A DNA stretch of 64,000 nucleotides from a bacterium (lineage in GTDB: Bacteria > Patescibacteriota > Microgenomatia > Curtissbacterales > GWA2-41-24). The notes below the pieces were generated by a model. That model saw only the letters and a list, made by a program, of their open reading frames with translations, ran no database searches and was not told where the DNA came from. The translations under genes and the position numbers were made by a program. Numbering within the stretch: the first letter of the stretch is position 1; every line of letters starts with the position of its first letter. Shown here piece after piece: positions 3,932 through 58,918 of this stretch. The stretch lies in NCBI GenBank assembly GCA_021813945.1, contig JAKAJD010000001.1:9744-73743 (forward strand), in the 5' to 3' direction.

Positions 3932-4618
3932 ATGATAGAATTTATATCTGTTACCAAAAAATATCCTAATGGCGCACTTGCGCTAGATGACATTAACCTA
4001 AAAATTGCCGATGGCGAGTTCATCTTCATAGTTGGGCCATCCGGTGCGGGCAAATCGACCCTTTTAAAGCTAATCACCAGAGAAACATCACCAACGTCCG
4101 GAACCATACTATTAAATGAGGAAGATATTTTAAAAATTCCGAAAAACAAAATACCGGTTCTTAGAAGAAGAATCGGGACAGTTTTTCAAGATTTTAAGCT
4201 GCTTCTGACAAAAACAGTATTCGAAAATGTCGCTGTACCTCTCGAGGTTTTAGGTTATAAAGAATCAGAAATAGAGAAACAAGTTTCCGAAGCATTAGAT
4301 AAAGTAGGCCTGCTGGAAAAAGCGAACAGCTTCCCGCTTCAGCTTTCGGGGGGAGAAGTTCAAAGAACCTCAATTGCAAGGGCGATAATTTCAAAACCGC
4401 AAGTACTTTTGGCAGACGAGCCAACAGGTGATTTGGATCCTAAAAATTCCCTGGAAGTGGTAAGTCTTATTGAGAAAATAAACAAGGAAGACAAAACAAC
4501 AATTTTGATGGCAACGCACAATGCTCAAATAGTTAATCATTTCAAAAAGCGTGTAGTAAATCTTAAAAAGGGTAAAATAGAATCGGACGTTAAGGAGGGC
4601 AGATATGAAGCAGCCTAA
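3932..4618 (+). CDS. ftsE: Cell division ATP-binding protein FtsE (ABC ATPase)
   Basis: Walker A GPSGAGKST, ABC signature LSGGEVQRTSIARA, Walker B LLADEPTG. It is immediately followed by ftsX. Confidence 0.9.
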   Translation: MIEFISVTKKYPNGALALDDINLKIADGEFIFIVGPSGAGKSTLLKLITRETSPTSGTILLNEEDILKIPKNKIPVLRRRIGTVFQDFKLLLTKTVFENVAVPLEVLGYKESEIEKQVSEALDKVGLLEKANSFPLQLSGGEVQRTSIARAIISKPQVLLADEPTGDLDPKNSLEVVSLIEKINKEDKTTILMATHNAQIVNHFKKRVVNLKKGKIESDVKEGRYEAA

Positions 4619-5477
4619 AGAAGCTATAAAGCTTATAAGAAGAAGTCCGTATCAAGCTCTTGCGGCAGCCTTGGCAATGTCATTAACGTTTTTTGTCTCA
4701 TCCGTTTTTATTTTACTCATAATAGGAGGCCAGATAGTTTTAAATTACATCGAGCAACGGCCTCAAGTTATTGCTTTTTTCAAAGATAACGCGACTCAAT
4801 CCCAGATAGCGGATTTAACTTCAAAAGTCCAAGCAACCGGCCTGACAACAAGCATCAAATTCGTTTCAAAAGAAGAAGCTTTGGCGATCTATAGAGAGCG
4901 AAACAAAAATGACCCTTTGCTTTTAGAATCCGTAACTGCGGATTTTCTGCCTGCGTCAATTGATATCTCTGTTAAAAAAGCTCAAGATATTCAAACGATA
5001 ACGAGCATGGTTCAACAAGACTCGCAAGTTGAAAGAGTCATTACCCCCCAAAACTTAGTTGACCAGCTGGTAAAGTGGACCAAAACCATACGAGTTGGAG
5101 GAATTGTTTTTGTCTCCACACTGTTGGCCGTATCCTTCCTTATAGTAATAATGGTTATCGGCATGAGAATTGCCATACGTCGCGACGAAATAGTCATCAT
5201 GAACCTAGTCGGTGCGACCAAATGGTATATCTCAAGGCCATTTTTTATAGAAGGCGCAATTTATGGTGTTGTTGGCGCCACTGTCGCCACATTTTTTGTC
5301 TACTCACTCCTTCTCTTTTACTCACCGAATATTCAACAATTTTTAGGTCCAATTCAAATTTTCCCAATATCGCCCTTATTTTTTGTGTATTTATGGATTG
5401 CAGAAGTTCTTGCAGCCGTTTCAATTGGCGTAGTTGGGGCAGCCATAGCCCTTTTCAGGTACTTAAGGATCGAATGA
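4605..5477 (+). CDS. ftsX: Cell division permease FtsX
   Basis: Four-TM topology with a large first extracytoplasmic loop. Its start overlaps the ftsE stop, and the order ftsE-ftsX is conserved. Confidence 0.8.
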   Translation: MKQPKEAIKLIRRSPYQALAAALAMSLTFFVSSVFILLIIGGQIVLNYIEQRPQVIAFFKDNATQSQIADLTSKVQATGLTTSIKFVSKEEALAIYRERNKNDPLLLESVTADFLPASIDISVKKAQDIQTITSMVQQDSQVERVITPQNLVDQLVKWTKTIRVGGIVFVSTLLAVSFLIVIMVIGMRIAIRRDEIVIMNLVGATKWYISRPFFIEGAIYGVVGATVATFFVYSLLLFYSPNIQQFLGPIQIFPISPLFFVYLWIAEVLAAVSIGVVGAAIALFRYLRIE

Positions 5478-6667
5478 GAAGATTTTTAATCTTAATCGTT
5501 CTGCCTGTCATATTTTTTGCGCTCAGCTCACAAAAAGTTTTTTCAACAGAGCTTAGCGATTGTGACAAGGACAGTATTCCCCAGGACAAAGTTGGTGAAT
5601 GTTTAGAGATTCTTTCTAAAAAGGTCAGTGAGTTGGGAAATCAAAAAAAGACCCTTTCAAACCAAATCTCCCAGTTTAACAGTCAAATTCAAATAACCCA
5701 ACTCAAAATTGCTAATGCGGAAGCAACCCTTTCCAAACTAGAAGACGAAATTAATGTTTTGGGCTTTAGAATTGGTTATGTTACAGGTTCTATCGACAAA
5801 CTTGAAACGCTTGTGAAAGAAAGGATAGTTGCAACTTATCAGGAAAGCTTCGTTTCAAACTTAGAACTAGTGCTTTCATCAAACGGCTTTTCAGATATAG
5901 TCCTAAGGTTGCAGTACCTCAAACAGGTCCAGGAAAACGATAAGCGTATCCTTGCAAGCTTGCAGCAAACAAAATCAAATTACGCAAACCAAAAAGATGA
6001 AAGGCAAGAAAAACAAGCAGAAATAGAAGCCACAAAACAGCAACTTTTAGGCCTAAAAACCAGCCTTGATTCCCAAAAAGCCGAAAAACAGGCGTTTTTA
6101 GAAGTCACCCAAAACGACGAAGCAAAATATCAACGTCTCCTGGCACAAGCTCAAGCAGAACTTGCAGTAGCCTTCGGTGGGGGAACCGAATCATATCTTC
6201 GGGATGTTAATGTTGGTGATTCAATTGGCTCTATTGCAGTAAGATCAGCAAGCCCAGGCTGTTCAAGTGGAGCCCACCTTCATTTTGAGGTACACAAAAA
6301 TGGCTCCATTCAGGATCCTAATAATTATCTAAGTTCACACAGTTTCAGCTACAGTTATTCGCCCGACCAGTACTCTGTCTACGGCACAATAAATCCTCAT
6401 GGAGACTTACCATGGCCACTAAATGACCCCATCATGATTAATCAGGGATTTGGTACTTCCCACAGTTACGCTTCTTTTTACGGCTCGTCAGGTCATACCG
6501 GGATTGATATGGAATCCTCAGATTACACGGTAAAAGCAGTCAAAAAAGGCAAACTGTATGCAGGTGCCTTTTCTTGTGGAGGGGCATATCCCGGAACTCT
6601 TTATTATTCCAGGGTCAAAAGCGACGATGGAATCGACGTCCTTTATCTTCACATGATTCCCAGGTAA
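5474..6667 (+). CDS. Secreted coiled-coil M23 (LytM-type) metallopeptidase, EnvC/PcsB-like FtsEX partner
   Basis: The start MRRFLILIVLPVIFFALSS is a signal peptide, and its ATG overlaps the ftsX stop (ATGA). A long coiled coil follows (QISQFNSQIQITQLKIANAEATLSKLEDEI...), then M23 motifs HLHFEV and GHTGID. The longer tracked ORF 5075..6667 is an upstream out-of-frame extension over ftsX and is rejected. Confidence 0.8.
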   Translation: MRRFLILIVLPVIFFALSSQKVFSTELSDCDKDSIPQDKVGECLEILSKKVSELGNQKKTLSNQISQFNSQIQITQLKIANAEATLSKLEDEINVLGFRIGYVTGSIDKLETLVKERIVATYQESFVSNLELVLSSNGFSDIVLRLQYLKQVQENDKRILASLQQTKSNYANQKDERQEKQAEIEATKQQLLGLKTSLDSQKAEKQAFLEVTQNDEAKYQRLLAQAQAELAVAFGGGTESYLRDVNVGDSIGSIAVRSASPGCSSGAHLHFEVHKNGSIQDPNNYLSSHSFSYSYSPDQYSVYGTINPHGDLPWPLNDPIMINQGFGTSHSYASFYGSSGHTGIDMESSDYTVKAVKKGKLYAGAFSCGGAYPGTLYYSRVKSDDGIDVLYLHMIPR

Positions 6668-6708: not shown

Positions 6709-7539
6709 GTGAAAAAGCTTTTACTGCTGGTTTTTTTTCTTTTACTCTTGCCCAAAAATGTTAATGCGTCCGATGTAAAACTCAATGAAGTGATGGCAAA
6801 CCCTTCATCGGGTCAGAATGAATGGGTGGAGATTTACGCTCCAGGTACAACCAATTTAGATGGTTATTACCTCCAAGATAAAAACGATCATGACAACAAC
6901 AAGACCACAAAAACATTAAATAGTGCTCAACACTGTGGGGATTATTTCGTTTACGAATATTCAGGAGATGGATGGCTTAATAACACTTCAGACGAATCTC
7001 TTTTTCTGTACGACAATAATAATAACTTAGTAGATTCTCACGAAAATTGGCAAGCAGCTCCTGAAGGAAAAACTGTCGGGCGTATCCCTAATGGTTCTGG
7101 TGAATGGAAACAGACGAAAGAACCGACTAAATGTAACCCGAATATCGAAGATACCTCTACGCCAACTCCTGGCCCAACATCAGATCCGGGATCTACAGCA
7201 ACCTCAACTCCGACACCTACTCCAACTCCCAAAGCTTCTCCAACCCCCACGCCAAAAGTTACGCCCAAACCATCAGCAACTCCTAAAAGCGGGTCCCCAA
7301 GCGCCAGCCCTGCTGTACTTGGCGATCAAACACAATCACTAATCGCCTCAGGTGCGGGCCTTCTTGATACCAGCACTCAAGCCCAAGACGGGTTCCAAAA
7401 AGGTCCCAGTAAGCTGGTTGCTGGAATCCTTGTCATCTCTGGTACAGGCCTTATTCTCCTTGCACTCGGCTTTCACTTTTGGTACCGCAAAATCAACAAA
7501 GGCAAAATTCTCGAAACAAAAGACCCATTCCAGCTTTGA
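6709..7539 (+). CDS. Surface protein with a signal peptide, a lamin-tail domain (LTD), a Pro/Thr-rich linker and a C-terminal TM anchor
   Basis: The probable GTG start at 6709 gives MKKLLLLVFFLLLLPKNVNA; the tracked ORF from 6574 has no in-frame ATG after the upstream stop. The LTD signature is LNEVMANPSSGQNEWVEIYAPG...LYDNNNNLVDS. The linker is PTPTPTPKASPTPTPKVTPKPSATPK, and the C-terminal helix is LVAGILVISGTGLILLALGFHFWYRKINKGK. Confidence 0.6.
   Translation: MKKLLLLVFFLLLLPKNVNASDVKLNEVMANPSSGQNEWVEIYAPGTTNLDGYYLQDKNDHDNNKTTKTLNSAQHCGDYFVYEYSGDGWLNNTSDESLFLYDNNNNLVDSHENWQAAPEGKTVGRIPNGSGEWKQTKEPTKCNPNIEDTSTPTPGPTSDPGSTATSTPTPTPTPKASPTPTPKVTPKPSATPKSGSPSASPAVLGDQTQSLIASGAGLLDTSTQAQDGFQKGPSKLVAGILVISGTGLILLALGFHFWYRKINKGKILETKDPFQL
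7156..7318 (+). repeat. Low-complexity Pro/Thr/Ser-rich coding repeat (ACNCCN-type codon repeats) inside the LTD protein
   Basis: Repeated acncca/actccn units encode TPTPGPTSDPGSTATSTPTPTPTPKASPTPTPKVTPKPSATPKSGSPSASP. Confidence 0.6.
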
Positions 7540-22013: not shown

Positions 22014-23225
22014 ATGTCCAAACTGGAAAAATTCCTCCTTTTTGTAAACATAGCGATCTATCTTTCTATTGCAGTTTTTTCATTCGCTTATGTGGATCTC
22101 AATCTTACCTTAAGCCAAAACCGCTATATTCTGGGCTTCATTTCACAAATGCAATATTTAGGTTATTATAGTAGGCCGCAAGCCACATCCATCTATCTTC
22201 TCATGATTTTTGCGACATACGCGTTTTTTATTGCCAATTTAATTCTGTTTTTAAGGAAAAAAATTACAAAAAAATACCTGGTCTTATCGTCACTTACAAG
22301 CGTTATAATTTTGATCTTTGCGTACCCATACCTCTCCTCAGATATTTTTAACTACATATTTGATGCAAGAATAATATTACATTACCATTTAAGCCCATAT
22401 AGTCACAGAGCTTTAGACTTTCCACAAGATGACTGGATTAGGTTTATGCGTTGGACGCATCGATATTCTCCATACGGCCCTGTTTGGCTGTTTTTCTCGC
22501 TCATACCCTACACCCTAGGCTTAGGTAAATTCCTTCTAACTCTTTTAACTTTTAAAACTTTTATTTCTCTGTTTCACCTAGCGAATATTTACCTGATATA
22601 TCAAATTTTAAATTTTAAAAAAGATAATTTAAGGCTTACGGGAACAGCTCTTTACGCACTTAATCCACTTATTCTTACAGAAGGAATCATAAATGGGCAC
22701 AATGATGTAGTCCTGGCAACCTTTTTGCTACTACCGATTTATTTCTCGACTCGCAATAAAAATGTAAAATCAATTATTTCAATATTGACAGGTACACTCA
22801 TAAAATACATTCCCATCCTTAACTTTCCGTGGTTATTATTGCATATAAAAACAAAAAACTTTGGGCTTAAAAAGTTAATAATTGCTAACATTATCACAAT
22901 GGTTATCTTTACTTACATTTTTTCATCATTCAAAATTACTGTGCCATTCGTCTCATCAGGGGCTACTCAAGTGCAGTTTCAACCATGGTATCTATTCTGG
23001 ACACTGCCTTTAATTGCCCTTCTTTCAAATACCTGGCTCACAATTTTTTCAATCGCTGTAGCGCTTGGTGCAAGTTTAAGATATCTCCCATTCATTTATT
23101 ATGGAGACTGGAGCCATCAAGGTACTTTAGAGTTTATGACTATTGCAACCTTTGCACCTGCTTTTATAATGGGCATTATATTTTTGATATATAAAACCTT
23201 TTTAACTCACTCAAGTGACAAATAA
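22014..23225 (+). CDS. Polytopic membrane protein, possible GT-C-type glycosyltransferase
   Basis: About 11 TM helices. The conserved-looking loop is SSDIFNYIFDARI...QDDWIRFMRWTHRYSPYGPVWL. Confidence 0.5.
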   Translation: MSKLEKFLLFVNIAIYLSIAVFSFAYVDLNLTLSQNRYILGFISQMQYLGYYSRPQATSIYLLMIFATYAFFIANLILFLRKKITKKYLVLSSLTSVIILIFAYPYLSSDIFNYIFDARIILHYHLSPYSHRALDFPQDDWIRFMRWTHRYSPYGPVWLFFSLIPYTLGLGKFLLTLLTFKTFISLFHLANIYLIYQILNFKKDNLRLTGTALYALNPLILTEGIINGHNDVVLATFLLLPIYFSTRNKNVKSIISILTGTLIKYIPILNFPWLLLHIKTKNFGLKKLIIANIITMVIFTYIFSSFKITVPFVSSGATQVQFQPWYLFWTLPLIALLSNTWLTIFSIAVALGASLRYLPFIYYGDWSHQGTLEFMTIATFAPAFIMGIIFLIYKTFLTHSSDK

Positions 23226-25659
23226 AAATAGGACTTCAAAATTTTTCAAATCAACTTTTCCATTTGCAGTCATATTTGGTGTGACACTTCTTATTTTCTT
23301 TAAAATTTTCATAAAAGGGTTGTATCCAATTCCTGGTGATCTTCTTGTTTCTTTCTATTTCCCTTGGTACTCAGGCGGGTGGGTCGGTTATGACCCTTGG
23401 ACTACCCATAAAGAAATGCTTGGGGCAGATTCAATAAGGCAAATATATTTGTGGAAGGAGTTTGCTGCACATCAATTTTTATCTGGCCATTTTCCACTTT
23501 GGAATCCATTTACTTTTTCAGGCCAACCCCTCATAGCAAATTTTCAGTCTAGTGTTTTTTATCCTTTCAACATTTTTTATTTCTTTACCGACGCAAGAAA
23601 CGCTTGGATTTTACTTATAACAATTCAACCACTTTTAGCGGGAATTTTTATGTTTATTTGCCTGCGAAGTTTCAAATTGCCAAAAATTGCGGCACTTTTT
23701 GGCTCAATTACTTTTATGTTTTCAAGTTACTTTATAACTTGGATGGAGAATGGAAATATAAGCCATGGTTACCTTTGGCTTCCTTTTGCAATATTTGCCA
23801 TTAATCGATTTTTTGAAAAACATCAGATTAGATATCTGATCGCATTGGCTGTGACCATCACCCTTTCCATTTTTGCAGGCCATCCCCAAACAGTCATATA
23901 TATTGTTTTAGCTACCTCTTTATTTTTCTTTTTTAAAATTTACGAAGAGTCCAAAAATGCAAAACTTTTTTTGTATTATTGCATCTCTCTTTTGGGGGCA
24001 TTGCTAATCAGCTCAGTCCAGCTAATCCCTACATTGGCTTTTTACAAAATGTCTCCAATTCATCTTCCTTTCGCCAAAGAAGTATTTGACAGATCGATAA
24101 TGCCAGTTCAAAACTTAATCACCTTCTTTGCAAGTGACTTCTTTGGTCATCCGGCAAACAATAATTTTTGGAGCGCAAGCTACGGAGATTTTACCCCTTA
24201 TTTCGGGGTCATACCACTTATATTTTCACTTTGGGCAATATTTAAACTGAGGAGAACAAGATTCGTAAGATTTGCAGCTTTAACATCTTTATTTTTTATC
24301 TTCTCAGCAATCCAAGGGCCTATTACTTATCTGATAAAAAAACTACAAATACCTTTAGTAGACGCTACCTCTCCATCTAGATTCCTTTCAATAACAATAT
24401 TCTTTTTAATTATCTTGTCTGCCCTTGGCTTCTCTGATTTTTTACAGCATATCCAAACTAAAAAATATTTTACAAACTTTATAAAATTTTTGGCATTTTT
24501 GTTCCCAATATATATTGCGATGTGGGCTTTTACTGTATTCGGCAAAATCATATTAAAAAATGATCAAATTTGGCAAATTAATCTCTCTGTCTCACAACAC
24601 AATTTAGTTCTACCAACAGCTATGTTTTTATCAATTCCTGCAATATTGCTTCTACTCATATATGCAAAAAAATTAATAAAACCTTTCCCGGATAATATTT
24701 CCATAAAGATTGCGATCACGGCCATTTTCCTAGTTACAATATTTGGTGGCGTTTACTACACAAACAAATTTCTTCCGGTTGCTCCCAAAAAATTTATTTT
24801 TCCTGATCACCCTATTTTGACATGGCTTGAGCAGAATGCAGGTATCGATAGATTTTACGGAAGCCAGACTGCCCATATTGATTACAACTTTCCAACGCAT
24901 TATCAAATTTATGGAGTTGAAGGCTACGACACACTAAGACTCGAGCGTTACGCCCAGCTGCTAGCCTCTATTCCAACTGGCCAAGTGCCAAAAACTTACC
25001 TGCGATCAGATGGGACACTGCCAGATAGCAATGAGAATGTTAACAAAAAGAGAATTCTGGACCTTTTAGGCGTTAAATATATGCTTGATAAAGAGGATAA
25101 TCCAAAAACGGGTGCAGACTGGCATTACGACAGATTTCCGACAGATAAGCTAAAAGGCTTGGTACAGTACACCAGACCTCAAATATACTTGAGAGAAGAT
25201 GCTATACCACGGTTTTTCATGTCTACCAAATACACAGTTGCAAAATCGGATGAGGAAATCTTGAGTGATATTTATAACCAAAATTTCGATCTTAGAACTT
25301 TAATTTTAGAGCAAGAACCAAACATACCCGTTGATAACACTGAGTCCAATATAGTTATTCCTCAACTCTTAAACTACATCCCGGAAAGTTCTATCTTCAA
25401 AACTAATAACAGTTCAAATTCGCTTTTGTTTATCTCGGATGCTTACGACAGTGGCTGGAAAGCTTTTATAGATGGTAAAAAATCTCCAATATTACGGGCC
25501 GATTATGCCCTAAGAGCAGTAGCGGTTCCCAAAGGAGAGCACGAGGTGCAATTTAAATATGAGCCGGACTCTTTTAAAATTGGCTTTTATATCACTATCT
25601 TATCCACAATCGGACTTCTTGGAATTTGCGCATTTTCTATATCGAAGAAAAAATTCTGA
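23215..25659 (+). CDS. YfhO-like large membrane protein (GT-C-like, 814 aa)
   Basis: Polytopic N-terminal region plus a C-terminal domain ending GWKAFIDGKKSPILRADYALRAVAVPKGEHEVQFKYEP, which resembles the YfhO-family C-terminus. Confidence 0.6.
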   Translation: MTNKNRTSKFFKSTFPFAVIFGVTLLIFFKIFIKGLYPIPGDLLVSFYFPWYSGGWVGYDPWTTHKEMLGADSIRQIYLWKEFAAHQFLSGHFPLWNPFTFSGQPLIANFQSSVFYPFNIFYFFTDARNAWILLITIQPLLAGIFMFICLRSFKLPKIAALFGSITFMFSSYFITWMENGNISHGYLWLPFAIFAINRFFEKHQIRYLIALAVTITLSIFAGHPQTVIYIVLATSLFFFFKIYEESKNAKLFLYYCISLLGALLISSVQLIPTLAFYKMSPIHLPFAKEVFDRSIMPVQNLITFFASDFFGHPANNNFWSASYGDFTPYFGVIPLIFSLWAIFKLRRTRFVRFAALTSLFFIFSAIQGPITYLIKKLQIPLVDATSPSRFLSITIFFLIILSALGFSDFLQHIQTKKYFTNFIKFLAFLFPIYIAMWAFTVFGKIILKNDQIWQINLSVSQHNLVLPTAMFLSIPAILLLLIYAKKLIKPFPDNISIKIAITAIFLVTIFGGVYYTNKFLPVAPKKFIFPDHPILTWLEQNAGIDRFYGSQTAHIDYNFPTHYQIYGVEGYDTLRLERYAQLLASIPTGQVPKTYLRSDGTLPDSNENVNKKRILDLLGVKYMLDKEDNPKTGADWHYDRFPTDKLKGLVQYTRPQIYLREDAIPRFFMSTKYTVAKSDEEILSDIYNQNFDLRTLILEQEPNIPVDNTESNIVIPQLLNYIPESSIFKTNNSSNSLLFISDAYDSGWKAFIDGKKSPILRADYALRAVAVPKGEHEVQFKYEPDSFKIGFYITILSTIGLLGICAFSISKKKF

Positions 25660-33389: not shown

Positions 33390-35051
33390 ATGTTTAAGAG
33401 AATAAAACAGAACAATATTCGCATAATCTTTGTTGCTCTTATTTGCTTGACGTTATTTTTACGTCTCTATCAATTGGGAAATATACCTAATGGCTTTGCA
33501 AACGACGAAGGTGCTGTAGCATACCAATCGTATTCAATCTTAAAGACCGGAAAAGACACATGGGGGAAAAGTTTCCCAACTACATCTTTTAGAGATTTTG
33601 GAGAATATTTGCCACCGTTTGCGGTATATGCAATTGTGCCATTTATTAAATTAATCGGATTAACCGTATTTGCAACTAGATTACCTTTTGCTCTTACTGC
33701 AGTAATTGCAATTTTTCCAATTTACGCTTTGTCAAAGGAACTGTTTAATAACAAAAAAATCGCACTTCTTTCGTGTTTTCTGTTTGCTATTTCCCCCTTT
33801 AACATAGGGTGGTCACGGTTTATTTTCGAAGGCAATTTTGGAATGTTATTTTACTTGCTGGGAATTACTTTCCTTGTTTTTGCCAAAAAGAAATCCCATT
33901 TTCTACCTTTTTCTGCTCTATTTTTCGGCTTAACATTTACAACATATCACATATATTATTTTCTCACGCCCTTAACTGCTGCAATTTTAGCTATTCCCTT
34001 AATTTCAAAATTCGCTAAATCAAAAAGAGACACCCTTATTACAATCATAATATCTATAGTCTTTGTCGCTTACGCTCTAGCCATAGTTGCAAGCGGTTCT
34101 GGCAGGGAGCGCTTCAGGCAGGTCTCCATTTTTCAAAATCAAAATTCTTTAATAAATCTAAATTCAAGGCAATCTTATTGTGGAAAAAGTACACCACAAA
34201 TTATTTGCAGAATATTTTTCAACAAAGCAGAAACCTACCTTTTTGATTACAGCTATAATTATTTTTCGCATTTTTCACCCACCTTTTTATCTCTCGATGG
34301 AACCTTTTTACGCCAAGCAATATTGCCTAAGCACGGGTTAATTTATCCGTTTGAATTGCCATTTTTATTTATTGCAGCCTTTTTCCTCATAAAAAATTTT
34401 ACGTATCAATCTTACGTACTGGTGGGATTATTATTAATTTACCCCTTAGCAAACAGCTTTACAGGTGTGGGTGAGATATCCCGAATATCTCAAATCATGC
34501 CAATATTTCCGATTCTAAGTTCCTATGGAATATTCACAACGATCCAAAAGCTAAGACCCATTTTTAGGGGAATGCTGTCGATTTTCTTAGTTAGTTTTGC
34601 CGTATTTAACATAGTTTCGTTTTTATTGAATTACTTTTTAATTTTTCCCAGAACTAACGGTTACTTCGATTCGGATGCTTATGTCAAATTATTTAAAAAA
34701 ATAAGCGTAGACAAAACTAAATATAAAAATTTTTACATTACAAGAGATTACGAGGGCAACAGCCCAGAATATCAAGCCAGGATATTTCTGCCAATACCAC
34801 CAAACACTTTTCAAGATTCAACTCGCAATGAATTCGAAGTTAAAAAACCTCAAAATTATATTGACTACAAAAGATTAGACAACTATTATTTCTTCAGTAA
34901 CATGCAAGACATCAGCCCCAATCCCGGCGATCTAGTTGTTATAAATTACAATCAAGCTAGTGTGGCAAAAAAAATCGATTTCACTATATATGAAGATAGT
35001 GGTAATCCAGCCCTAATTGGAGTATCAGGCGAAAATTTAACTAATAAGTGA
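33390..35051 (+). CDS. ArnT/PMT-like GT-C glycosyltransferase (COG1807 / GT39-83-like)
   Basis: GFANDEGAVAYQSYSILKTGKDTWGK...ISPFNIGWSR matches the DE-loop signature shared with the six tandem paralogs at 50821-60488. Confidence 0.7.
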   Translation: MFKRIKQNNIRIIFVALICLTLFLRLYQLGNIPNGFANDEGAVAYQSYSILKTGKDTWGKSFPTTSFRDFGEYLPPFAVYAIVPFIKLIGLTVFATRLPFALTAVIAIFPIYALSKELFNNKKIALLSCFLFAISPFNIGWSRFIFEGNFGMLFYLLGITFLVFAKKKSHFLPFSALFFGLTFTTYHIYYFLTPLTAAILAIPLISKFAKSKRDTLITIIISIVFVAYALAIVASGSGRERFRQVSIFQNQNSLINLNSRQSYCGKSTPQIICRIFFNKAETYLFDYSYNYFSHFSPTFLSLDGTFLRQAILPKHGLIYPFELPFLFIAAFFLIKNFTYQSYVLVGLLLIYPLANSFTGVGEISRISQIMPIFPILSSYGIFTTIQKLRPIFRGMLSIFLVSFAVFNIVSFLLNYFLIFPRTNGYFDSDAYVKLFKKISVDKTKYKNFYITRDYEGNSPEYQARIFLPIPPNTFQDSTRNEFEVKKPQNYIDYKRLDNYYFFSNMQDISPNPGDLVVINYNQASVAKKIDFTIYEDSGNPALIGVSGENLTNK

Positions 35052-50820: not shown

Positions 50821-52446
50821 ATGCAAAGGCACAAAATCTTACTAATTGTTATTCTAATTCTTGCGGCATTCCTGCGTTTTTATCACCTCGGCCAAAACCC
50901 TCCTAGCCTAGATTGGGATGAAACCGCCGAAGGCTATAATGCTTATTCTATTCTCAAGACTGGCATGGATGAGTACGGAAAAAAGTTCCCTTTATCTTTT
51001 CGCTCTTTCGACGATTATAAACCACCTCTTTACACCTATATGACCGTTCCGTCGGTTGGTTTATTTGGCCTAAACGATTTCGCAGTGCGTTTTCCGTCGG
51101 CGCTTCTTGGCACATTTGCGATATTAACAACCTATTTAATGGTTTTGGAGCTTTTCGGCAATCGAAAAATTGCCCTGTTTTCTGCTTTATTTTTAACAAT
51201 TTCCCCCTGGCATCTTCAGTTTTCGCGCGTTGGATTTGAAACCAATAGCACCATTTTTTGGGCAACACTTGGAACATGGGCTTTTTTAAAGGGGATAAAC
51301 GCAAGTGGTAAAAAAATCGCGTTGTGGTTATCCCTAGCGTCCACCGCCTTTGGTCTTAATCTTTTTATGTACCATAATTCACGTGTTTTTATCCCGCTTT
51401 TTTCTGTGGTTCTAATATTCCTTTTTAAAGGCAAACTCCTTAATATAAAAAAATACCTCATTGTACCCGCAATTATCGCTGTAATTTTTTCATCATTACT
51501 TATTCCAATTATTTTTTCTATCCAGGGACAACTACGATATGAAGGTACAACAGTCTTTTCAGATCTCTCGCCACTTTATAAAGCATCCGCCAAAATTGAA
51601 GTTGACAGGCAAGATGGAATGCTTGCAATTGGGAAAATATTGCACAATAGGCGCTTAGTTTATGCGCCAATCATTTTAAACAATTACCTATCCCACTTAA
51701 ATCCGACATTTTTGTTTTTCACTGCAGACATGAACAGGCACCACGCACCCGGAATAGGCCTGCTATACCTTTGGGATTTGCCATTTATTCTGGCAGGAAT
51801 TTATTTTCTCATTAAAAATAAGTTTGACACGAAATCAAAAGTGATAATTTTTTCCTGGTTTTTTCTTGCTCCGGTTGCTGCATCTGTTACCTGGGGCGTG
51901 CCTCACTCGTTGCGCTCAGAAATGTACATTCCAACTTATCAAATTTTTGCAGCCATAGGTATATATACTCTTTATTCATATATAAAACCCAAAAAAGTTT
52001 TTGCGATCTTTGCCAGCCTAGCCCTTTTTATAAACTTCGCCTACTATCTCCACCAATATTATGTCCACATGCCAGTTGAATTTTCCCAAGACTGGTTATA
52101 TGGGAGAAAAGAAGCAGCGCTTACATCAAATCAACTTAAAGATAACTACAGTCGTGTTATTGTCTCGACTAAACTTGAGCAGCCGCATGAGTTCTGGCTT
52201 TATTACCTGAAATACGATCCCAAAAAATATTTAAGTGAAGGTGGAACAGTTTCAGGTGGATTTTTGGAAGACAGGAATCATTTTGACAAGTTTTACTTCA
52301 AACCTATTAATTTTGCCAAGCAATCTCAAGAAGAAAAAACTTTATTTGTTGGAACACAATCCGAATTTCCCGAAAACTCTAAAGTTATTAAGAAAATAAA
52401 TTATCTAAATGGGCAGCCAGCAATATATATAGTTTCGGGAGTATAA
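50821..52446 (+). CDS. ArnT/PMT-like GT-C glycosyltransferase (tandem paralog 1 of 6)
   Basis: LDWDETAEGYNAYSILKTGMDEYGKKFPL...ISPWHLQFSR. Confidence 0.7.
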   Translation: MQRHKILLIVILILAAFLRFYHLGQNPPSLDWDETAEGYNAYSILKTGMDEYGKKFPLSFRSFDDYKPPLYTYMTVPSVGLFGLNDFAVRFPSALLGTFAILTTYLMVLELFGNRKIALFSALFLTISPWHLQFSRVGFETNSTIFWATLGTWAFLKGINASGKKIALWLSLASTAFGLNLFMYHNSRVFIPLFSVVLIFLFKGKLLNIKKYLIVPAIIAVIFSSLLIPIIFSIQGQLRYEGTTVFSDLSPLYKASAKIEVDRQDGMLAIGKILHNRRLVYAPIILNNYLSHLNPTFLFFTADMNRHHAPGIGLLYLWDLPFILAGIYFLIKNKFDTKSKVIIFSWFFLAPVAASVTWGVPHSLRSEMYIPTYQIFAAIGIYTLYSYIKPKKVFAIFASLALFINFAYYLHQYYVHMPVEFSQDWLYGRKEAALTSNQLKDNYSRVIVSTKLEQPHEFWLYYLKYDPKKYLSEGGTVSGGFLEDRNHFDKFYFKPINFAKQSQEEKTLFVGTQSEFPENSKVIKKINYLNGQPAIYIVSGV

Positions 52447-52449
52447 CAA

Positions 52450-54084
52450 ATGAATCAGTACAAAAACTTACTTAATTCAAAATTACTCATAATTTTAATA
52501 GTTATTCTAGCTTTTGTATTAAGAACATACAAACTTTCAAATGTTCCGCCATCGCTCTATTGGGACGAAGCTTCTCTGGGTTACAATGCATATTCCATTC
52601 TTAAAACAGCACACGACGAGCATGGTAAATTCCTACCATTAACAAATTTTGGTGCATACGGCGATTACAAACCACCGCTTTATATTTATGCAACCGTCCC
52701 ATCGATTTTTATCTTTGGTTTGACGGAATTCGCAATACGCTTCCCGTCTGCGCTTTTTGGAACACTAACCATTTTACTTACGTATTTTCTTGCAAAGAAA
52801 TTTTTCGAAAATGAGGCAATCGCACTTTTATCTGCATTGTTCTTGGCGATTTCCCCCTGGCATCTGCAGTTTTCAAGAGGTGCCTTTGAAGCAAATTTAG
52901 GACTCTTTTTATCCGTTTTAGGAGTTTTGACATTTATTAAATTTGCGAAGGATAGACCACTATATATTTTTATGTCAGCAGGTTCTTTTCTAGCCGCCAT
53001 GTATACGTTTACTGGTCAAAGATTATTTGCCCCATTTATTCTAGTAGTGCTTTGTTTTCAGTTCAGAAAAGAATTAATCAAAAATTGGAAATACGTCCTA
53101 GTCGCAGCCTTTCTTTCGGCAATATTGTTTTGGCCACTTTTTAGGTTCGTTACAGGAACAATTGAAGGGAAACTTCGCTTTAACGAGGTTACTATATTTA
53201 AAGATTTAAAGCCGATCAACGATTCAATAAGATTTAAAAACGAAGATAATTTCTCCTGGTGGTCGGGGATAACGCATAACCGCCGTCTTTTTTACATAAA
53301 TCAATATTTGATCCATTATTTCGATGCCTTTAATCCTACATTTTTATTTTTTCAGGGAGACGTTAATCCACGCCTTTCGATCCAGGCGATAGGAGAGCTT
53401 TACTTTTTTGACTTATTTTTGATTCTGGCAGGAATATATTTTCTTTTCAATAAAAAACAAAAATTTCGCTTTTTGATTATGGGTTGGTTATTAATATCTC
53501 CCCTCGGCCCAGCAACTGCCAGGGAAACACCGCATGCCTTAAGGATGATCCATATTCTGCCTACCTTTCAGCTAGTGGCAGCATATGGCACTTACCAAAT
53601 ATATCAACTTATTAAATTCAAAAAAATGTTTGTTATAGGTTCAATAGTAATAATTTTAGCCAGCTTCTTTTACTACTTACACATGTATTATGTACATTAT
53701 CCGCGAGAAAATTCCGGAGAGTGGCAGTATGGTTATAAGCAAGCCGTTGAATACCTTAGCCCCTTATATAATAATGTAGATCATGTGGTTGTCACAGAAG
53801 CTTATGGCAGGCCTTATATATACTTTCTAATTTATATGAAAATCGACCCCAAAAATTATTACCAACATGCAAGTGTTTCAAGAGACGACCAATTTTTTTA
53901 TCACGTCAACTCGTTTGACAAGCTAATATTTTCAAATTCACCGACAAGTTACGCTCTTCCCGGTAAAACAATTTTTGTTACGACACCAGGGAACTTACCG
54001 ACAAATACTAAACTTCTCGAGACAGTTAGCCAGCTGGATCAAAAACCGGTGTTTGATATAGGAGAAACTGTGAATGAAAAATAA
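52450..54084 (+). CDS. ArnT/PMT-like GT-C glycosyltransferase (tandem paralog 2 of 6)
   Basis: LYWDEASLGYNAYSILKTAHDEHGKFLPL...ISPWHLQFSR. Confidence 0.7.
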   Translation: MNQYKNLLNSKLLIILIVILAFVLRTYKLSNVPPSLYWDEASLGYNAYSILKTAHDEHGKFLPLTNFGAYGDYKPPLYIYATVPSIFIFGLTEFAIRFPSALFGTLTILLTYFLAKKFFENEAIALLSALFLAISPWHLQFSRGAFEANLGLFLSVLGVLTFIKFAKDRPLYIFMSAGSFLAAMYTFTGQRLFAPFILVVLCFQFRKELIKNWKYVLVAAFLSAILFWPLFRFVTGTIEGKLRFNEVTIFKDLKPINDSIRFKNEDNFSWWSGITHNRRLFYINQYLIHYFDAFNPTFLFFQGDVNPRLSIQAIGELYFFDLFLILAGIYFLFNKKQKFRFLIMGWLLISPLGPATARETPHALRMIHILPTFQLVAAYGTYQIYQLIKFKKMFVIGSIVIILASFFYYLHMYYVHYPRENSGEWQYGYKQAVEYLSPLYNNVDHVVVTEAYGRPYIYFLIYMKIDPKNYYQHASVSRDDQFFYHVNSFDKLIFSNSPTSYALPGKTIFVTTPGNLPTNTKLLETVSQLDQKPVFDIGETVNEK

Positions 54085-55567
54085 ACCAGTATTCGTCTGG
54101 GTAATTCTGTCGTTTGCCTATTTTGCCACACGCCTTATTAACCTCAAAATCCTTCCAATTTTTACAGATGAAGCAATCTATTCATTTTGGGCCCAAGTAG
54201 CGCTTCATGATCCTGCAAATCGTTTTATATCCTTAGAAGATGGTAAGCAGCCGCTATTTATATGGATTGCGGCGACGTTTCAAAAATTCATATCTGACCC
54301 GCTTATTGCCACAAGGCTGGTTTCAGTTTTTGCTGGGTTTGGGTCGCTAATAGGCATTTATCTTGTTTCAAATCTGCTATTTAATAATAAAAAAATTGCC
54401 TGGACAGCATGCTTCCTCTATATAATTTTTCCTTTCACTCTCCTTTACGATAGAATGGGCATTTTTGACTCTCTTTTAACAATGATTGGAATTTGGGCAG
54501 TATTTTTCTCAGTCAAAATGGCCAAAGATCCAAAATTAGATTTAGCAATGTTGAATGGGATTACAATAGGGCTTGGACTTATCACAAAATCATCAGCCGA
54601 ATTTTACCTATACTTGCTTCCATTTTCGCTAATATTTTTTAATTTTTCAAAAAAAGATCGCAGCAATAGATTTTACCATTGGTTGGGCTGGTCGGCTATC
54701 ACCTTTCTTATTGCTGAAGTTATCTATAATTCCCTTCGGCTATCACAATTTTTCTACATAATTGGAAGAAAAAATATGGAATTTATAAGATCCGTTTCAG
54801 AAGTAATTAAAAATCCTCTTGAGTTTTCAGTATCCAATTTCCACGCTCTAACGCAATGGGTATATACCTATATGGGCGCCGTTTTCTTTTTTGTCTTTCT
54901 GGCAGGTTTAATTTACGGTCTATACAAAAGAAAACATCAAATCATCTATCTTGCAGTACTAATTTTTGCGCCCTTTTCTGCAGAGGTCATTTTCAACAAA
55001 GTCTTATATGCAAGATTTGCCTTGTTTTACTTTCCATACGTAATCATTATCTTGTCGTTTACAATTGTTACTCTTTTTGAACTCTTCTCTAAATATAAGA
55101 AGGTAATCATCGCAATAGTAATTTTGGGCCTCATTGTGCCCTTATCCACGTCTTTTTTTCTTTTGACTAACCCGCCGAAAGCCAACATTGCTGACAACGA
55201 CAAAAATCAATACATTAATGATTGGCCGGCTGGGTATGGAGTATCAGAAATTATCAATATTCTAAAACAGGAATCATCAAAAGGAGATGTTTACGTTGGG
55301 ACAGAAGGAACTTTTGGTCTTTATCCTTATAGTCTTCAAGTCTATTTTTATAGTAATCCCAATGTTCACATATACGGTTATTGGCCAGTAGATGCAAACA
55401 GTCTTCCAAAACAGATAATTGATTTCTCAAAAGATTATAAAACATATTTTATCTATAACTTTACTCAAGCTTCTATAGCCGATAAGCATACCCATTTAGT
55501 TGCTAAATATCAAAAAGGTAGTGGTAACAGCTATATGAGACTATTCCAAGTGGAATATGACCGCTAA
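54074..55567 (+). CDS. ArnT-like GT-C glycosyltransferase, divergent subfamily (tandem paralog 3 of 6)
   Basis: IFTDEAIYSFWAQ...GKQPLFIW is the classic ArnT-type first loop; it lacks the YNAYSILKTG signature of its neighbours. It overlaps the upstream gene by 11 nt. Confidence 0.65.
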   Translation: MKNKPVFVWVILSFAYFATRLINLKILPIFTDEAIYSFWAQVALHDPANRFISLEDGKQPLFIWIAATFQKFISDPLIATRLVSVFAGFGSLIGIYLVSNLLFNNKKIAWTACFLYIIFPFTLLYDRMGIFDSLLTMIGIWAVFFSVKMAKDPKLDLAMLNGITIGLGLITKSSAEFYLYLLPFSLIFFNFSKKDRSNRFYHWLGWSAITFLIAEVIYNSLRLSQFFYIIGRKNMEFIRSVSEVIKNPLEFSVSNFHALTQWVYTYMGAVFFFVFLAGLIYGLYKRKHQIIYLAVLIFAPFSAEVIFNKVLYARFALFYFPYVIIILSFTIVTLFELFSKYKKVIIAIVILGLIVPLSTSFFLLTNPPKANIADNDKNQYINDWPAGYGVSEIINILKQESSKGDVYVGTEGTFGLYPYSLQVYFYSNPNVHIYGYWPVDANSLPKQIIDFSKDYKTYFIYNFTQASIADKHTHLVAKYQKGSGNSYMRLFQVEYDR

Positions 55568-57224
55568 ACTATCATCAATTTATATTTTCATCTTCATAAT
55601 TGTCCTTGCCGCCTCCCTCAGGTTAATCAACTTGGGTTCAATTCCCAATGGATTCAGCGACGACGAGGCAGCATTTGGATACAATGCATACTCTATTTTA
55701 AAAACCGGTCGAGACGAATGGGGTAAATTATTACCCCTCACCAATTTCCAAAGCTTCGGTGACTACAAGCTACCTGTGTATTTTTATCTAACTTCTGTTT
55801 CAATTTCATTTTTTGGACTGTCGGAATTTGCAGTCAGATTTCCAACAGCATTTTTTGGGATCCTTTCTATTATTCTGACTTACTTCCTAATCAAAAGATT
55901 ATTTGATGAAAAAACAGCCCTTTTAGCATCGTTTCTGCTCACAATTTCTCCCTTTCATATATTCGTTTCGCGCCACGCTTTAGAATCCGCTGTCCCAATT
56001 TTTTTCAACCTTGCGGCGGTATTATTTTTTTTGAAATCATTTAAACGGAAAAAGTTAATTTATATTTCGGCCATTTTTTTTGCTATCAATCTTTATATAT
56101 ATCGTTCAACCTGGATTTTTGTACCAGTATACTTTGGGGCCCTACTGTTTTTATTTAAAGAAGAAATTTCAAAAAATCTAAGAAATACGATCTACGCTCT
56201 GCTAATCTTCGCAGCCCTTGCAACACCAATTGCTATTACTGCTGTATCCCCGAGTGGAACTTCAAGAGTGAGACAAATTGGCATAACATCTCAATTTAAC
56301 ATGATAGGTCTGGTTAATGATGTCAACAGCAACAAGCAAATATGCATTCAAAAGCTGCCGATATTGGTTTGCCAAATCACATACAACAAATACTCAGCCT
56401 TGTTGAAGAAATACGTATCAAACTATATTAGCCATTATTCTCCTCAATTACTCTTTATTTCCGGATCTCCGGATGGTGAACAAATGTTAAAAGGAAGAGG
56501 ATTTTTATATTTTTTTGAGCTACCTTTTATAGTAATTGGGATCATTTATCTTGGAAAAAATCGAAAGAGTTTCCAGTCAAAAATAATTTTACCTTGGCTT
56601 CTCATCTACCCATTGGCTTCAGCTAGTACCGGCTTTGAAACACCCGGAAGACAAGCAATTATGATGCCTGTATGGGAAATAATAACGGCTGCCGGCTTTT
56701 TTAGTTTAGTTTTTTACCTTGAGCAAAGAAAAAATCTTATATTTAAAAAAATTCTTATAGTTTTTTTTGCGTTAATTGTCGCGTTCGAATTTGGTGGATT
56801 TTTCGTGGATTATTTCTACATCTACCCGAAAATTTCTGGTCCCTATTTTAGATACGGTTACAGAGAGCTTTTTTCATATCTTAAAAACCAACAAAATGAT
56901 TACGATAGAATTCTAATTTCAAACAAGCTAGACGCTTCACATCAATACATCTTTTTGCTTTTTTACTCCAAGATAAGCCCCAAAGATTATCAGAATCCGT
57001 CTTATTTCGATAGGCATATCAACGATCATGGATGGGTAGAGGTTACGAGAATGGGAAAATATTACTTTTATGCCTCAAAACCCGGTCTGAATGGACAACC
57101 CCAAAAAACTCTAGTCGTAGTTGGAAAGGGCGAGGTTCAATCTGGCCCTAAACCAATTTACACAATAGATTTTCCAGACGGCCACAAAGCGTTTGAGGTA
57201 TATCAGCTTGAAAAAATTATATGA
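55557..57224 (+). CDS. ArnT/PMT-like GT-C glycosyltransferase (tandem paralog 4 of 6)
   Basis: GFSDDEAAFGYNAYSILKTGRDEWGKLLPL...ISPFHIFVSR. Confidence 0.7.
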   Translation: MTAKLSSIYIFIFIIVLAASLRLINLGSIPNGFSDDEAAFGYNAYSILKTGRDEWGKLLPLTNFQSFGDYKLPVYFYLTSVSISFFGLSEFAVRFPTAFFGILSIILTYFLIKRLFDEKTALLASFLLTISPFHIFVSRHALESAVPIFFNLAAVLFFLKSFKRKKLIYISAIFFAINLYIYRSTWIFVPVYFGALLFLFKEEISKNLRNTIYALLIFAALATPIAITAVSPSGTSRVRQIGITSQFNMIGLVNDVNSNKQICIQKLPILVCQITYNKYSALLKKYVSNYISHYSPQLLFISGSPDGEQMLKGRGFLYFFELPFIVIGIIYLGKNRKSFQSKIILPWLLIYPLASASTGFETPGRQAIMMPVWEIITAAGFFSLVFYLEQRKNLIFKKILIVFFALIVAFEFGGFFVDYFYIYPKISGPYFRYGYRELFSYLKNQQNDYDRILISNKLDASHQYIFLLFYSKISPKDYQNPSYFDRHINDHGWVEVTRMGKYYFYASKPGLNGQPQKTLVVVGKGEVQSGPKPIYTIDFPDGHKAFEVYQLEKII

Positions 57225-58918
57225 AAAGATATTTATTTACTGGCAATTTAAATATATTCAAAAATCTAATAAAGAGAAACATGTTTTTAATTTTGATAAT
57301 CATTTTAGCTTGTGTATTACGTTTTTACATGTTAACAACGATTCCAATTGGTTTCGGTGATGATGAAGCAGCATTCGGATATAATGCTTACTCTTTGCTT
57401 AAAACTGGTCATGATGAATGGGGAAAATATTTTCCATTCCCTGTTTTTGAAAGTTTTGGAGATTGGAAACTTGCGCTTTACCTATATTTGGTGGCTATTA
57501 GTCAATTCTTCCTGGGTGTTACTGTTTTTGCGACCCGATTTCCTTCTGCGGCAATCGGGGTTCTCGCAGTCGTGGCAACCTATTTACTTACAAAAGAATT
57601 ATTCGATAAAAAAATTGCTCTGGTTGCCTCGTTGTTAATCACGATATCTCCATGGCACATCGCGGCTTCGAGAAACGCTTATGAATCTGATTTATTAATT
57701 TTTACAATAACTCTTGGTACCTATTTTTTTCTAAAAGGCCTGAAGAAAAAGTATTATATTACGTTGAGTTTCTTAATATTCGGATTGTCGTTTTATTTGT
57801 ATCGATCAGCCTGGACTTTCATCCCTATTTTCATTCTTTTTTTAGTATTTTTATACTGGGATAGCTTCAAAAATTTAAGGTTATTTTTGGCAAAAAATAT
57901 TTTCTTTTTTTTAATTCTTCTATTGCCTCTTATACCAACACTTATAACCTTTCGAGGCCAATCAAGATTTTTTCAAGAGAGTTTTATGTCAGGGATTCAA
58001 AACATAGGAATATCGAACGATGTGAATGAGAGAAGAGGGGATTGTGCACAATTCTTTGGAAATCTGTTCTGCAAACTTACCTATAACAAATATAATTTTT
58101 ATTTATCAAAATATATCGACAACTATATTGCTAATATTTCCCCGCAAACTTACTATCAGAACATTAACCCAACCGGATATCAATCATTTACTCCCAGGGG
58201 CTACTTCTACACATTTGAATTCCTTCTTGCTATACCAGGCTTAATTTACCTTATTAATATTAAGAAAAACTCTACAAAGATTTTATTTGTTTGGATTGTA
58301 GCTGTCCTCCTTGCACCATCATTAACAAGCGTGGGAAATCCAGGCAGACTCAATATAATTATGCCTGTACCTCAAATAATCGCTGCAATTGGTTTAATAT
58401 ATTTGATTCAAATGATTAAAAATAATAAGCTGCGTTTACCATTTATCATACTAGCAACTACGGTGGTAACTTTATCCTTTATTAGATTTGTTGCTGACAC
58501 AATGAGCTACTATCCAAAATATGCTGCAATGTATCAAAGATATGGCTACGGAGAACTTTTTAAATACGTTGAAAGTCAGAAATCAAATTATTCTCAAATT
58601 ATCGTATCGAGAAAGTCAGATGACGCAAAGCAATACATTCATTATTTGTTTTTTACTAAATACGACCCTTCTAATTATCAAAAAAATGCATTTTTTTCTA
58701 GAGATAAATTAGGGTTTAGATCTGTCGATCAAATAGATAACATAAAATTTTCCTCATCCGTACCGCCTTTAAACACTATTCCTATAGGAACTATGATAGT
58801 AAGCGGAAATAACGAGTTATCGAGTAAAGATCTACGCCCCCTTAAAACGATAGTGGACCCCAAAGGCGATGTACTATTTAATGTTTATGAACTAACTGCG
58901 CACGCATATGAAGAATAA
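57221..58918 (+). CDS. ArnT/PMT-like GT-C glycosyltransferase (tandem paralog 5 of 6)
   Basis: GFGDDEAAFGYNAYSLLKTGHDEWGKYFPF...ISPWHIAASR. Confidence 0.7.
   Translation: MKRYLFTGNLNIFKNLIKRNMFLILIIILACVLRFYMLTTIPIGFGDDEAAFGYNAYSLLKTGHDEWGKYFPFPVFESFGDWKLALYLYLVAISQFFLGVTVFATRFPSAAIGVLAVVATYLLTKELFDKKIALVASLLITISPWHIAASRNAYESDLLIFTITLGTYFFLKGLKKKYYITLSFLIFGLSFYLYRSAWTFIPIFILFLVFLYWDSFKNLRLFLAKNIFFFLILLLPLIPTLITFRGQSRFFQESFMSGIQNIGISNDVNERRGDCAQFFGNLFCKLTYNKYNFYLSKYIDNYIANISPQTYYQNINPTGYQSFTPRGYFYTFEFLLAIPGLIYLINIKKNSTKILFVWIVAVLLAPSLTSVGNPGRLNIIMPVPQIIAAIGLIYLIQMIKNNKLRLPFIILATTVVTLSFIRFVADTMSYYPKYAAMYQRYGYGELFKYVESQKSNYSQIIVSRKSDDAKQYIHYLFFTKYDPSNYQKNAFFSRDKLGFRSVDQIDNIKFSSSVPPLNTIPIGTMIVSGNNELSSKDLRPLKTIVDPKGDVLFNVYELTAHAYEE

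Follow-up and report, generated by a model that had tools for sequence, protein, structure and literature searches.

A natural circular permutation of the M23 (LytM-type) peptidase domain is described here for a protein encoded directly after ftsE and ftsX in a stretch of 64,000 nucleotides, hereafter the window, from a bacterium of the order Curtissbacterales (contig JAKAJD010000001.1, positions 9,744 to 73,743). Judged from sequence profiles, the last third of the M23 domain has been moved ahead of the first two thirds, and the swapped order is far beyond chance. The gene most probably (with a probability of about 0.8) specifies an extracytoplasmic partner of FtsEX, in which a signal peptide and a coiled coil of the PcsB/EnvC type precede a catalytic, permuted M23 zinc peptidase. 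The swap had been proposed in an earlier annotation made from the letters of the DNA and their translation (the sequence-only reading) for positions 6160-6667 of the window, which correspond to residues 230-397 of the protein.

The translation confirmed the arrangement proposed there. The half which is C-terminal in canonical M23 enzymes comes first (RDVNVGDSIGSIAVRSASPGCSSGAHLHFEVHKNGSIQDPNNYL, residues 243-286), and the N-terminal half follows (PIMINQGFG...HTGIDMES...DGIDVLYLHMIPR, residues 319-397), up to the C-terminal end of the protein, ...LYLHMIPR. All metal ligands of the HxxxD and HxH motifs are present in swapped order, as HTGID at residues 341-345 and HLH at residues 268-270. The stop codon is located three codons past residue 394, the end of the second M23 segment, and four residues past H393, the histidine of the YLH motif.

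In order to compare the domain with canonical enzymes, a hidden Markov model (HMM) of 135 positions was built from 33 canonical M23 domains, together with a tandem-doubled version of the same model, matching to a doubled model being the classical test for circular permutation. The single model matched the protein twice in swapped order, as the sequence-only reading had expected, residues 245-287 being aligned to positions 95-133 and residues 310-394 to positions 6-84. With the doubled model, a single collinear match was obtained, which aligns residues 245-394 to positions 95-219 across the copy junction, with 60.3 bits and an E-value of 1.3e-19. Two swapped matches to the single model and one collinear match to the doubled one were also found for 14 other members of the family. 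The breakpoint is clean, and is located at HMM position 84, immediately behind the YxH(L) strand; in P0082, which represents the most canonical-looking type, the two pieces cover positions 85-135 plus 1-84, that is, the whole domain.

The Pfam Peptidase_M23 model (PF01551) leads to the same result. Along this model the motifs are ordered HxxxD, YxH, HxH, an order which the native protein does not follow, and within a C-terminal region of 160 residues Pfam calls the family in two separate stretches; the better one, residues 245-282, corresponds to positions 63-96, the end of the 96-position model. In the native sequence of another member, P0007, the downstream stretch (residues 239-291) corresponds to positions 2-52. 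When residues 305-397 of the window protein were placed before residues 235-304, the rejoined sequence produced a single Pfam match, extending over positions 2-96 of 96 and scoring 35.4 bits, compared with 28.9 bits for the native one. Rejoining of two homologues likewise led to a single collinear match over the full length, and raised their scores from 35.1 to 44.5 and from 62.6 to 71.6 bits. Among PDB sequences, a profile of the family matched the solved M23 chain 9gy1_A in swapped order (profile positions 107-162, from the old N-terminal segment, on residues 38-92; positions 15-58, from the old C-terminal segment, on residues 100-142), and did the same for 9m7n_A, the M23 domain of the phage protein Gp16; lysostaphin chains were matched by the downstream part of the profile.

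The permutation is shared by a whole lineage. When GTDB was scanned with one genome for each species, 45 loci were identified. Except where masking, truncation or a frameshift affects the end (a few loci, namely L030, L039 and L045), all of them show HxH, HxGxD and YLH (YWH in a few) in this order, followed by the stop codon. The closest locus, L001, from the metagenome-assembled genome WY5.bin133, encodes a protein of equal length, 94% identical over the domain and also located directly after ftsX. An exhaustive HMMER search of 1.84 billion cluster representatives produced 145 clusters, defined at 50% identity, with E<=1e-30. The 146 newly listed representatives were classified by domain order: 127 contain two matches in permuted order, 16 are end-truncated fragments, two are permuted and have a first match lengthened by a weak, spurious stretch, one (P0252) carries three tandem canonical M23 domains, and none has a single canonical domain. 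In a profile search of 5.8 billion proteins, about 75 clusters cover most of the permuted domain, and below them canonical M23 proteins match just 20-30% of the query. As to the earlier question whether orthologs share the permutation, it is common to the 45 species genomes and to the 127 cluster representatives, and canonical order was found in none of them.

Where record titles are informative, they name Curtiss-, Levy-, Gottesman-, Woese- or Blackburnbacteria, Microgenomates or Patescibacteria. One bulk submission accounts for about twenty titles of the form 'uncultured Gammaproteobacteria' or 'Pseudomonadales' (L008, L010-L013, L017-L019, L025, L027-L029, L031, L033, L037, L039-L041, L044 and L045), the synteny of these loci being unchanged, and a 1.4-Mb contig titled 'Vitreimonas sp.' (L020) also bears a Microgenomates-type ftsEX-M23 locus; we suspect that these titles reflect a placeholder or wrong taxonomy. 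A scan of viral contigs for the permuted domain returned no relatives. A search with the coiled coil only, for partners with other catalytic domains, returned only close relatives of the Curtissbacteria type, and the full-length ones that were read (P0286, P0298) are permuted. Public annotations describe members of the family as 'peptidoglycan DD-metalloendopeptidase family protein', 'MepM/NlpD' or 'EnvC', and do not mention the topology.

Conservation of the catalytic residues was analyzed by aligning about 157 full-length members to the doubled HMM. Apart from alignment gaps, the five metal and catalytic residues are invariant, even though the identity of members to the window domain goes down to roughly 33%. 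The histidine and the aspartate of HxxxD were found in 156 of 156 aligned members, the two histidines of HxH in 158 and 157, and the YxH(L) histidine, H393, in 153 of 153. Y336 lies five residues ahead of H341, shows a conservation of at least 90% and corresponds to Tyr204 of LytM. In LytM, zinc is bound by H210, D214 and H293, water is activated by H260 and H291, and Y204 stabilises the oxyanion (PMC4594094). According to the alignment with this enzyme, zinc would be bound by H341, D345 and H270, while H393 and H268 would activate water and Y336 would stabilise the oxyanion. The window protein is thus most likely an active peptidoglycan endopeptidase under FtsEX control.

The structure of residues 225-397 was predicted by AlphaFold2, by using an alignment of 72 sequences. 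A confident model was obtained, consisting of one compact, mostly beta domain (mean predicted local distance difference test, pLDDT, 90.7; predicted template modelling score, pTM, 0.87). The 22-residue connector between the old C-terminus and the old N-terminus is predicted to be ordered, with pLDDT values of 91-98, and to form a short strand and a helix. By mapping, rather than by superposition, each predicted strand appears to have its counterpart, in the same order, among the canonical HMM positions aligned to it, and the identity of the fold with M23 would rest on profile evidence plus the confident model. AlphaFold2 was also run without an alignment on the rejoined sequence; the pLDDT was 40, and the lipocalin matches found by Foldseek for that model are meaningless.

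Closeness of the canonical termini is a precondition for a viable permutation; the sequence-only reading had made the folding of the domain depend on closeness of the new termini. Across the family, the gap between the two HMM matches ranges between 0 and 62 residues; it is one residue in P0265 and about five in P0072 and P0082. Since members with gaps of 0-5 residues exist, the canonical termini must lie close together. At the other side of the domain, the chain ends 2-4 residues past the catalytic histidine in 133 of 143 members. C263 and C368 covary strongly, both being present in 124 members, neither in 13 and one in six, and they probably form a disulfide which staples the two re-threaded segments together. 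In the sub-clade L028-L043 the connector contains an insert (NCSG..C) with exactly two further cysteines, a pattern that suggests another disulfide.

The features of the locus are reported in Table 1.

Table 1. Features of the ftsEX-linked locus (positions are those of the window; residues are those of the permuted-M23 protein)
Feature	Position	Strand	Basis or location
ftsE (ABC ATPase)	3932..4618	+	Pfam ABC_tran, E 9.6e-39
ftsX (permease with extracellular domain)	4605..5477	+	Pfam FtsX_ECD 5.2e-16, FtsX 2e-10
Gene of the putative coiled-coil permuted-M23 hydrolase	5474..6667	+	397 aa plus stop; translation
Predicted N-terminal signal peptide or membrane anchor, residues 1-24, MRRFLILIVLPVIFFALSSQKVFS	5474..5545	+	read from sequence
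Coiled-coil region, about residues 44-232	5603..6169	+	CC_PcsB plus weak coiled-coil family matches
M23 segment C-terminal in the canonical order, residues 245-287	6206..6334	+	canonical HMM positions 95-133
Cys263	6260-6262	+	within the residues 245-287 segment, just before HxH
H268-L-H270	6275-6283	+	within the residues 245-287 segment
Connector from old C-terminus to old N-terminus, residues 288-309	6335..6400	+	between the two HMM matches
M23 segment N-terminal in the canonical order, residues 310-394	6401..6655	+	canonical HMM positions 6-84
Y336	within the residues 310-394 segment	+	role by LytM alignment
H341-x3-D345	6494-6508	+	within the residues 310-394 segment
Cys368	6575-6577	+	within the residues 310-394 segment, loop before the YxH strand
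Putative catalytic H393 (His of YLH)	6650-6652	+	role by LytM alignment

The reading frames of ftsE and ftsX overlap by 14 nt, and the start codon of the hydrolase gene overlaps the stop codon of ftsX in the ATGA at 5474-5477; the frame is uninterrupted up to its own stop codon at 6665-6667. An open reading frame (ORF) of 530 residues, starting from the GTG at 5075, was discarded as a mechanical artefact of the ORF listing, the real start being the ATG at 5474. The order of genes in this part of the window is secA, prfB, a gene for a small membrane protein, ftsE, ftsX and the hydrolase gene, followed downstream by a gene for a surface protein with a Lamin-Tail-Domain (LTD) and by tsaE; no amidase gene adjoins. 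The LTD protein (6709-7539) contains a long linker rich in Pro, Thr and Ser and a C-terminal membrane anchor, and at locus L046, too, an LTD gene lies next downstream of the permuted M23 gene.

The association with FtsEX and the coiled coil, both already indicated by the sequence-only reading, held up well. Pfam CC_PcsB matches residues 106-169 (positions 5789-5980) with 34.4 bits, against a cutoff of 27, and many weak matches to coiled-coil families extend across residues 34-230 in the Pfam scan. An N-terminal coiled coil of the PcsB/EnvC type, about 190 residues long, thus precedes the catalytic domain, as in the class of hydrolases controlled by FtsEX, and the linkage to ftsE and ftsX, in overlapping frames and with an extracellular domain on FtsX, is also that of the class. 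The gene located directly upstream, on the same strand, is ftsX in 39 of the 45 species loci, and in three there is too little flanking sequence to see the upstream gene. At L017 and L018 (match at 5001-5465), which encode the full coiled-coil permuted-M23 protein, no ftsE or ftsX was detected within 4.2 kb upstream, and L008 showed no ftsEX match on its 2-kb contig. A hydrophobic N-terminal stretch is present in 139 of 157 family members, and from that of the window hydrolase its export may be expected.

Other explanations of the swapped order have to be weighed against an active, single-chain, permuted enzyme. An assembly error, a rearrangement or a frameshift specific to the window would be suggested by the unusual order itself, and by nothing else; such an artefact is excluded for all practical purposes, because the order is conserved across loci, with the L001 protein 94% identical. 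The same order and the same C-terminal end recur in 45 independent species genomes and 127 representatives, coming from many studies, and the ORF of the window is uninterrupted. The sequence-only reading had also kept as a fallback two non-functional half-domains, as in EnvC. The M23 pieces would then be remnants within a degenerate, catalytically dead LytM factor, whose role, like that of EnvC, would be to regulate another hydrolase. EnvC, best known among the FtsEX partners that have a LytM domain, is indeed inactive (PMC11627006), and both the marginal native Pfam score and the lack of an M23 structural match in Foldseek would fit this explanation. The invariance of HxH, HxxxD and the YxH histidine in about 157 members as divergent as those described above, together with the conserved equivalent of LytM Tyr204, argues against it, as do the neighbouring genes, where LTD-domain and TsaE proteins are encoded downstream instead of an amidase. 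Degenerate LytM factors of the EnvC, NlpD and DipM type are defined by loss of zinc-ligand or catalytic residues. All five residues are kept in the window protein, so that an EnvC-like role does not fit and appears improbable.

It can also be imagined that the two segments pair across subunits, forming a domain-swapped dimer in which each active site is composed of two molecules. PcsB crystallises as an intertwined dimer (PMC11627006), and remnants of a tandem duplication could in principle complement each other in trans. The single chain, however, is predicted by AlphaFold2 as one compact domain with an ordered connector, members whose connector is reduced to 0-5 residues still bear both segments, and the cysteine pair covaries within the chain; we regard such a dimer as very improbable.

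Several observations weigh against the preferred interpretation, that of a permuted, catalytic FtsEX partner. The Pfam gathering score for M23 is only just reached by the native protein (28.9 bits, the cutoff being 28.7), and the old N-terminal segment alone falls below the Pfam reporting level. Foldseek, used to compare the confident model with PDB and BFVD, found no significant match, and no M23 structure among the top 50. Foldseek alignments follow the order of residues, and the sequence separation of neighbours, which a permutation changes, enters into its structural alphabet; the null result may perhaps be due to this dependence. Within the family, no coiled coil-M23-M23 protein representing a duplication intermediate was found. 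Finally, binding to FtsX and autoinhibition are suggested by gene order and homology only. Only two near-significant Foldseek matches were obtained for the model, both phage internal virion proteins of BFVD, A0A510E7V3_3 and L0CQF1, with probabilities of 0.99 and 0.85 and query-normalised template modelling (TM) scores of 0.40 and 0.31, respectively.

By the textbook route, a permutation arises when a domain is duplicated in tandem and the outer parts are then lost, and a plausible and likely origin of the family would be a tandem M23-M23 duplication from which the two outer parts were lost. Tandem canonical M23 domains, as a precursor would be expected to have, exist in proteins such as P0076 (292 aa, two domains) and P0252 (609 aa, three domains), and in P0252 the matches to the permuted profile span the junctions between domains. 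P0183 and P0265 were considered as duplication intermediates, as their first match extends back to HMM positions 47 and 71, and were rejected; the extension falls within the coiled coil, where the alignment is weak, and is probably spurious.

The permuted domain is also found without the coiled coil. The small secreted proteins P0082, P0083, P0086, P0087 and P0095 score 108-125 bits against canonical HMMs, being much nearer to the canonical consensus, and no more than about five residues separate their old C-terminus from the old N-terminus. The locus of P0082 (L046:1018-1599) shows the same M23, LTD, tsaE arrangement as the window, with a different membrane protein gene, and not ftsX, upstream. 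Another coiled-coil-free form, P0108 (168 aa, from a Logan assembly), carries a PEP-CTERM-like tail after YAHL (VPEP, a hydrophobic stretch and RRRRR), which suggests that organisms other than Patescibacteria, in this case one with an exosortase, have the permuted domain as well. In five of the six coiled-coil-free forms, P0108 included, one cysteine is located near the HxH loop and one at the very C-terminus (HLIC). Two large, unrelated proteins host the domain near their C-terminus: P0226 (1256 aa, domain at 1078-1251), a long helical protein with membrane segments, and P0261 (894 aa, domain at 691-835), a Cys-rich multi-domain protein.

The window protein shares with canonical proteins containing both CC_PcsB and Peptidase_M23 (P0081, P0098, P0119) a coiled coil of the PcsB type ahead of an M23 domain in which HxxxD, YxH and HxH are intact. 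In these proteins, however, M23 follows the family model collinearly, with the coiled coil attached to the N-terminal WP...FG strand, whereas in the window protein the attachment is to the hairpin ahead of HxH and the C-terminus comes directly behind YxH. The P0081 gene stands at the very start of its contig, with no upstream neighbour in view. EnvC of E. coli and P. aeruginosa also combines a coiled coil, a C-terminal LytM-type domain and FtsEX control through the FtsX extracellular domain (PMC7668044, PMC11627006). Its LytM domain is collinear and has lost catalysis, and EnvC acts by binding the regulatory helix of an amidase, being the FtsEX-bound activator of AmiA and AmiB; the window protein differs in its permuted domain, and in keeping every catalytic residue. 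Because these residues are intact, it should be a hydrolase itself, and not an amidase activator. In this respect it resembles PcsB of S. pneumoniae, CwlO of B. subtilis and RipC of M. tuberculosis, FtsEX partners which are hydrolases with an N-terminal coiled coil, and whose C-terminal catalytic domain is autoinhibited until FtsEX acts (PMC11627006). The catalytic domains of these three are cysteine peptidases (CHAP or NlpC/P60), unlike the zinc-dependent M23.

The residue set (Tyr, HxxxD, His, HxH) is that of LytM, lysostaphin and LasA, of MEROPS family M23 (PMC4594094). The sequence order is Y204-H210-D214-H260-H291-H293 in LytM and H268-H270-Y336-H341-D345-H393 in the window protein, which has in addition a conserved Cys pair and a structured connector. 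Functionally, it is an FtsEX partner of the PcsB/CwlO/RipC kind, with M23 chemistry as in LytM and lysostaphin. A natural circular permutation of a cell-wall peptidase domain, with catalytic residues swapped in sequence order, is known for NlpC/P60 families (YaeF/poxvirus G6R, LRAT-like; Anantharaman and Aravind 2003, as cited in PMC6403190). These have a papain-like Cys/His fold and chemistry, and are neither M23 enzymes nor FtsEX partners. Deep topology variants have also been described for hybrid-barrel domains, in RNA polymerase and NusG (PMC11515920).

The following mechanism can be proposed. The chain would enter the domain at the hairpin which canonical enzymes have after the catalytic YxH(L) strand, run via the HxH strand to the old C-terminus and through the structured connector to the old N-terminus, and lastly pass through Tyr, HxxxD and YxH, to end three to four residues later; the two segments would form one domain. 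By analogy with EnvC, PcsB, CwlO and RipC, whose control by FtsEX has been described (PMC11627006, PMC7668044), the coiled coil would dock between two FtsX extracellular domains, and binding and hydrolysis of ATP by FtsE would be transmitted via FtsX and the coiled coil. As in those partners, the autoinhibited catalytic domain would be freed to cut peptidoglycan cross-links at the septum, for separation of the daughter cells.

The permutation shifts the attachment of the coiled coil from the canonical WP...FG strand to the hairpin beside the catalytic YxH strand. The last coiled-coil helix would be joined, through about ten residues, to a hairpin packing beside the catalytic histidine, both chain termini being placed at the catalytic centre. 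Known partners use a separate restraining helix, or a catalytic domain docked against the coiled coil. If the permutation were an adaptive rewiring, movement of the coiled coil driven by FtsEX could gate the active site directly by mechanical pull, and the conserved disulfide could hold the two segments together under load; we consider this unlikely, a neutral oddity being the alternative.

Other features of the window were recorded along with the locus. Six consecutive paralogous genes for glycosyltransferases of the PMT_2/GT-C type, of 497-565 aa each, occupy positions 50821-60488, and a seventh copy is located further upstream, at 33390-35051; a gene for a YfhO-like membrane protein is found at 23215-25659. 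The + strand carries 46 of the 49 window ORFs of at least 200 aa, and no tRNA genes were found by ARAGORN in the 64-kb window.

M23/LytM peptidases, to which lysostaphin, LytM, LasA, MepM and the regulators EnvC and NlpD belong, are among the best-studied cell-wall enzymes. In the searchable full-text literature, which does not cover subscription literature, a permuted M23/LytM domain was not found to be reported, and searches there on FtsEX in Patescibacteria or the candidate phyla radiation yielded nothing on a permuted M23. The permuted M23 is a clear, well-supported oddity in a heavily studied family; alone, it does not alter the understanding of the system. As a natural permutant conserved in a lineage, with its breakpoint beside a catalytic histidine, it offers a case for the tolerance of a composite metal site to re-threading, and variants with short and with long connectors are both on hand for comparison. 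For annotation, collinear models under-score such proteins, the window protein being 0.2 bits above the Pfam threshold, so that members may be missed, or taken for truncated or degenerate proteins. The attachment geometry, unlike that of EnvC, PcsB and RipC, could be used for testing how force is transmitted by FtsEX. As regards cell division in the candidate phyla radiation, the protein is the probable FtsEX-controlled septal hydrolase of the Microgenomates.

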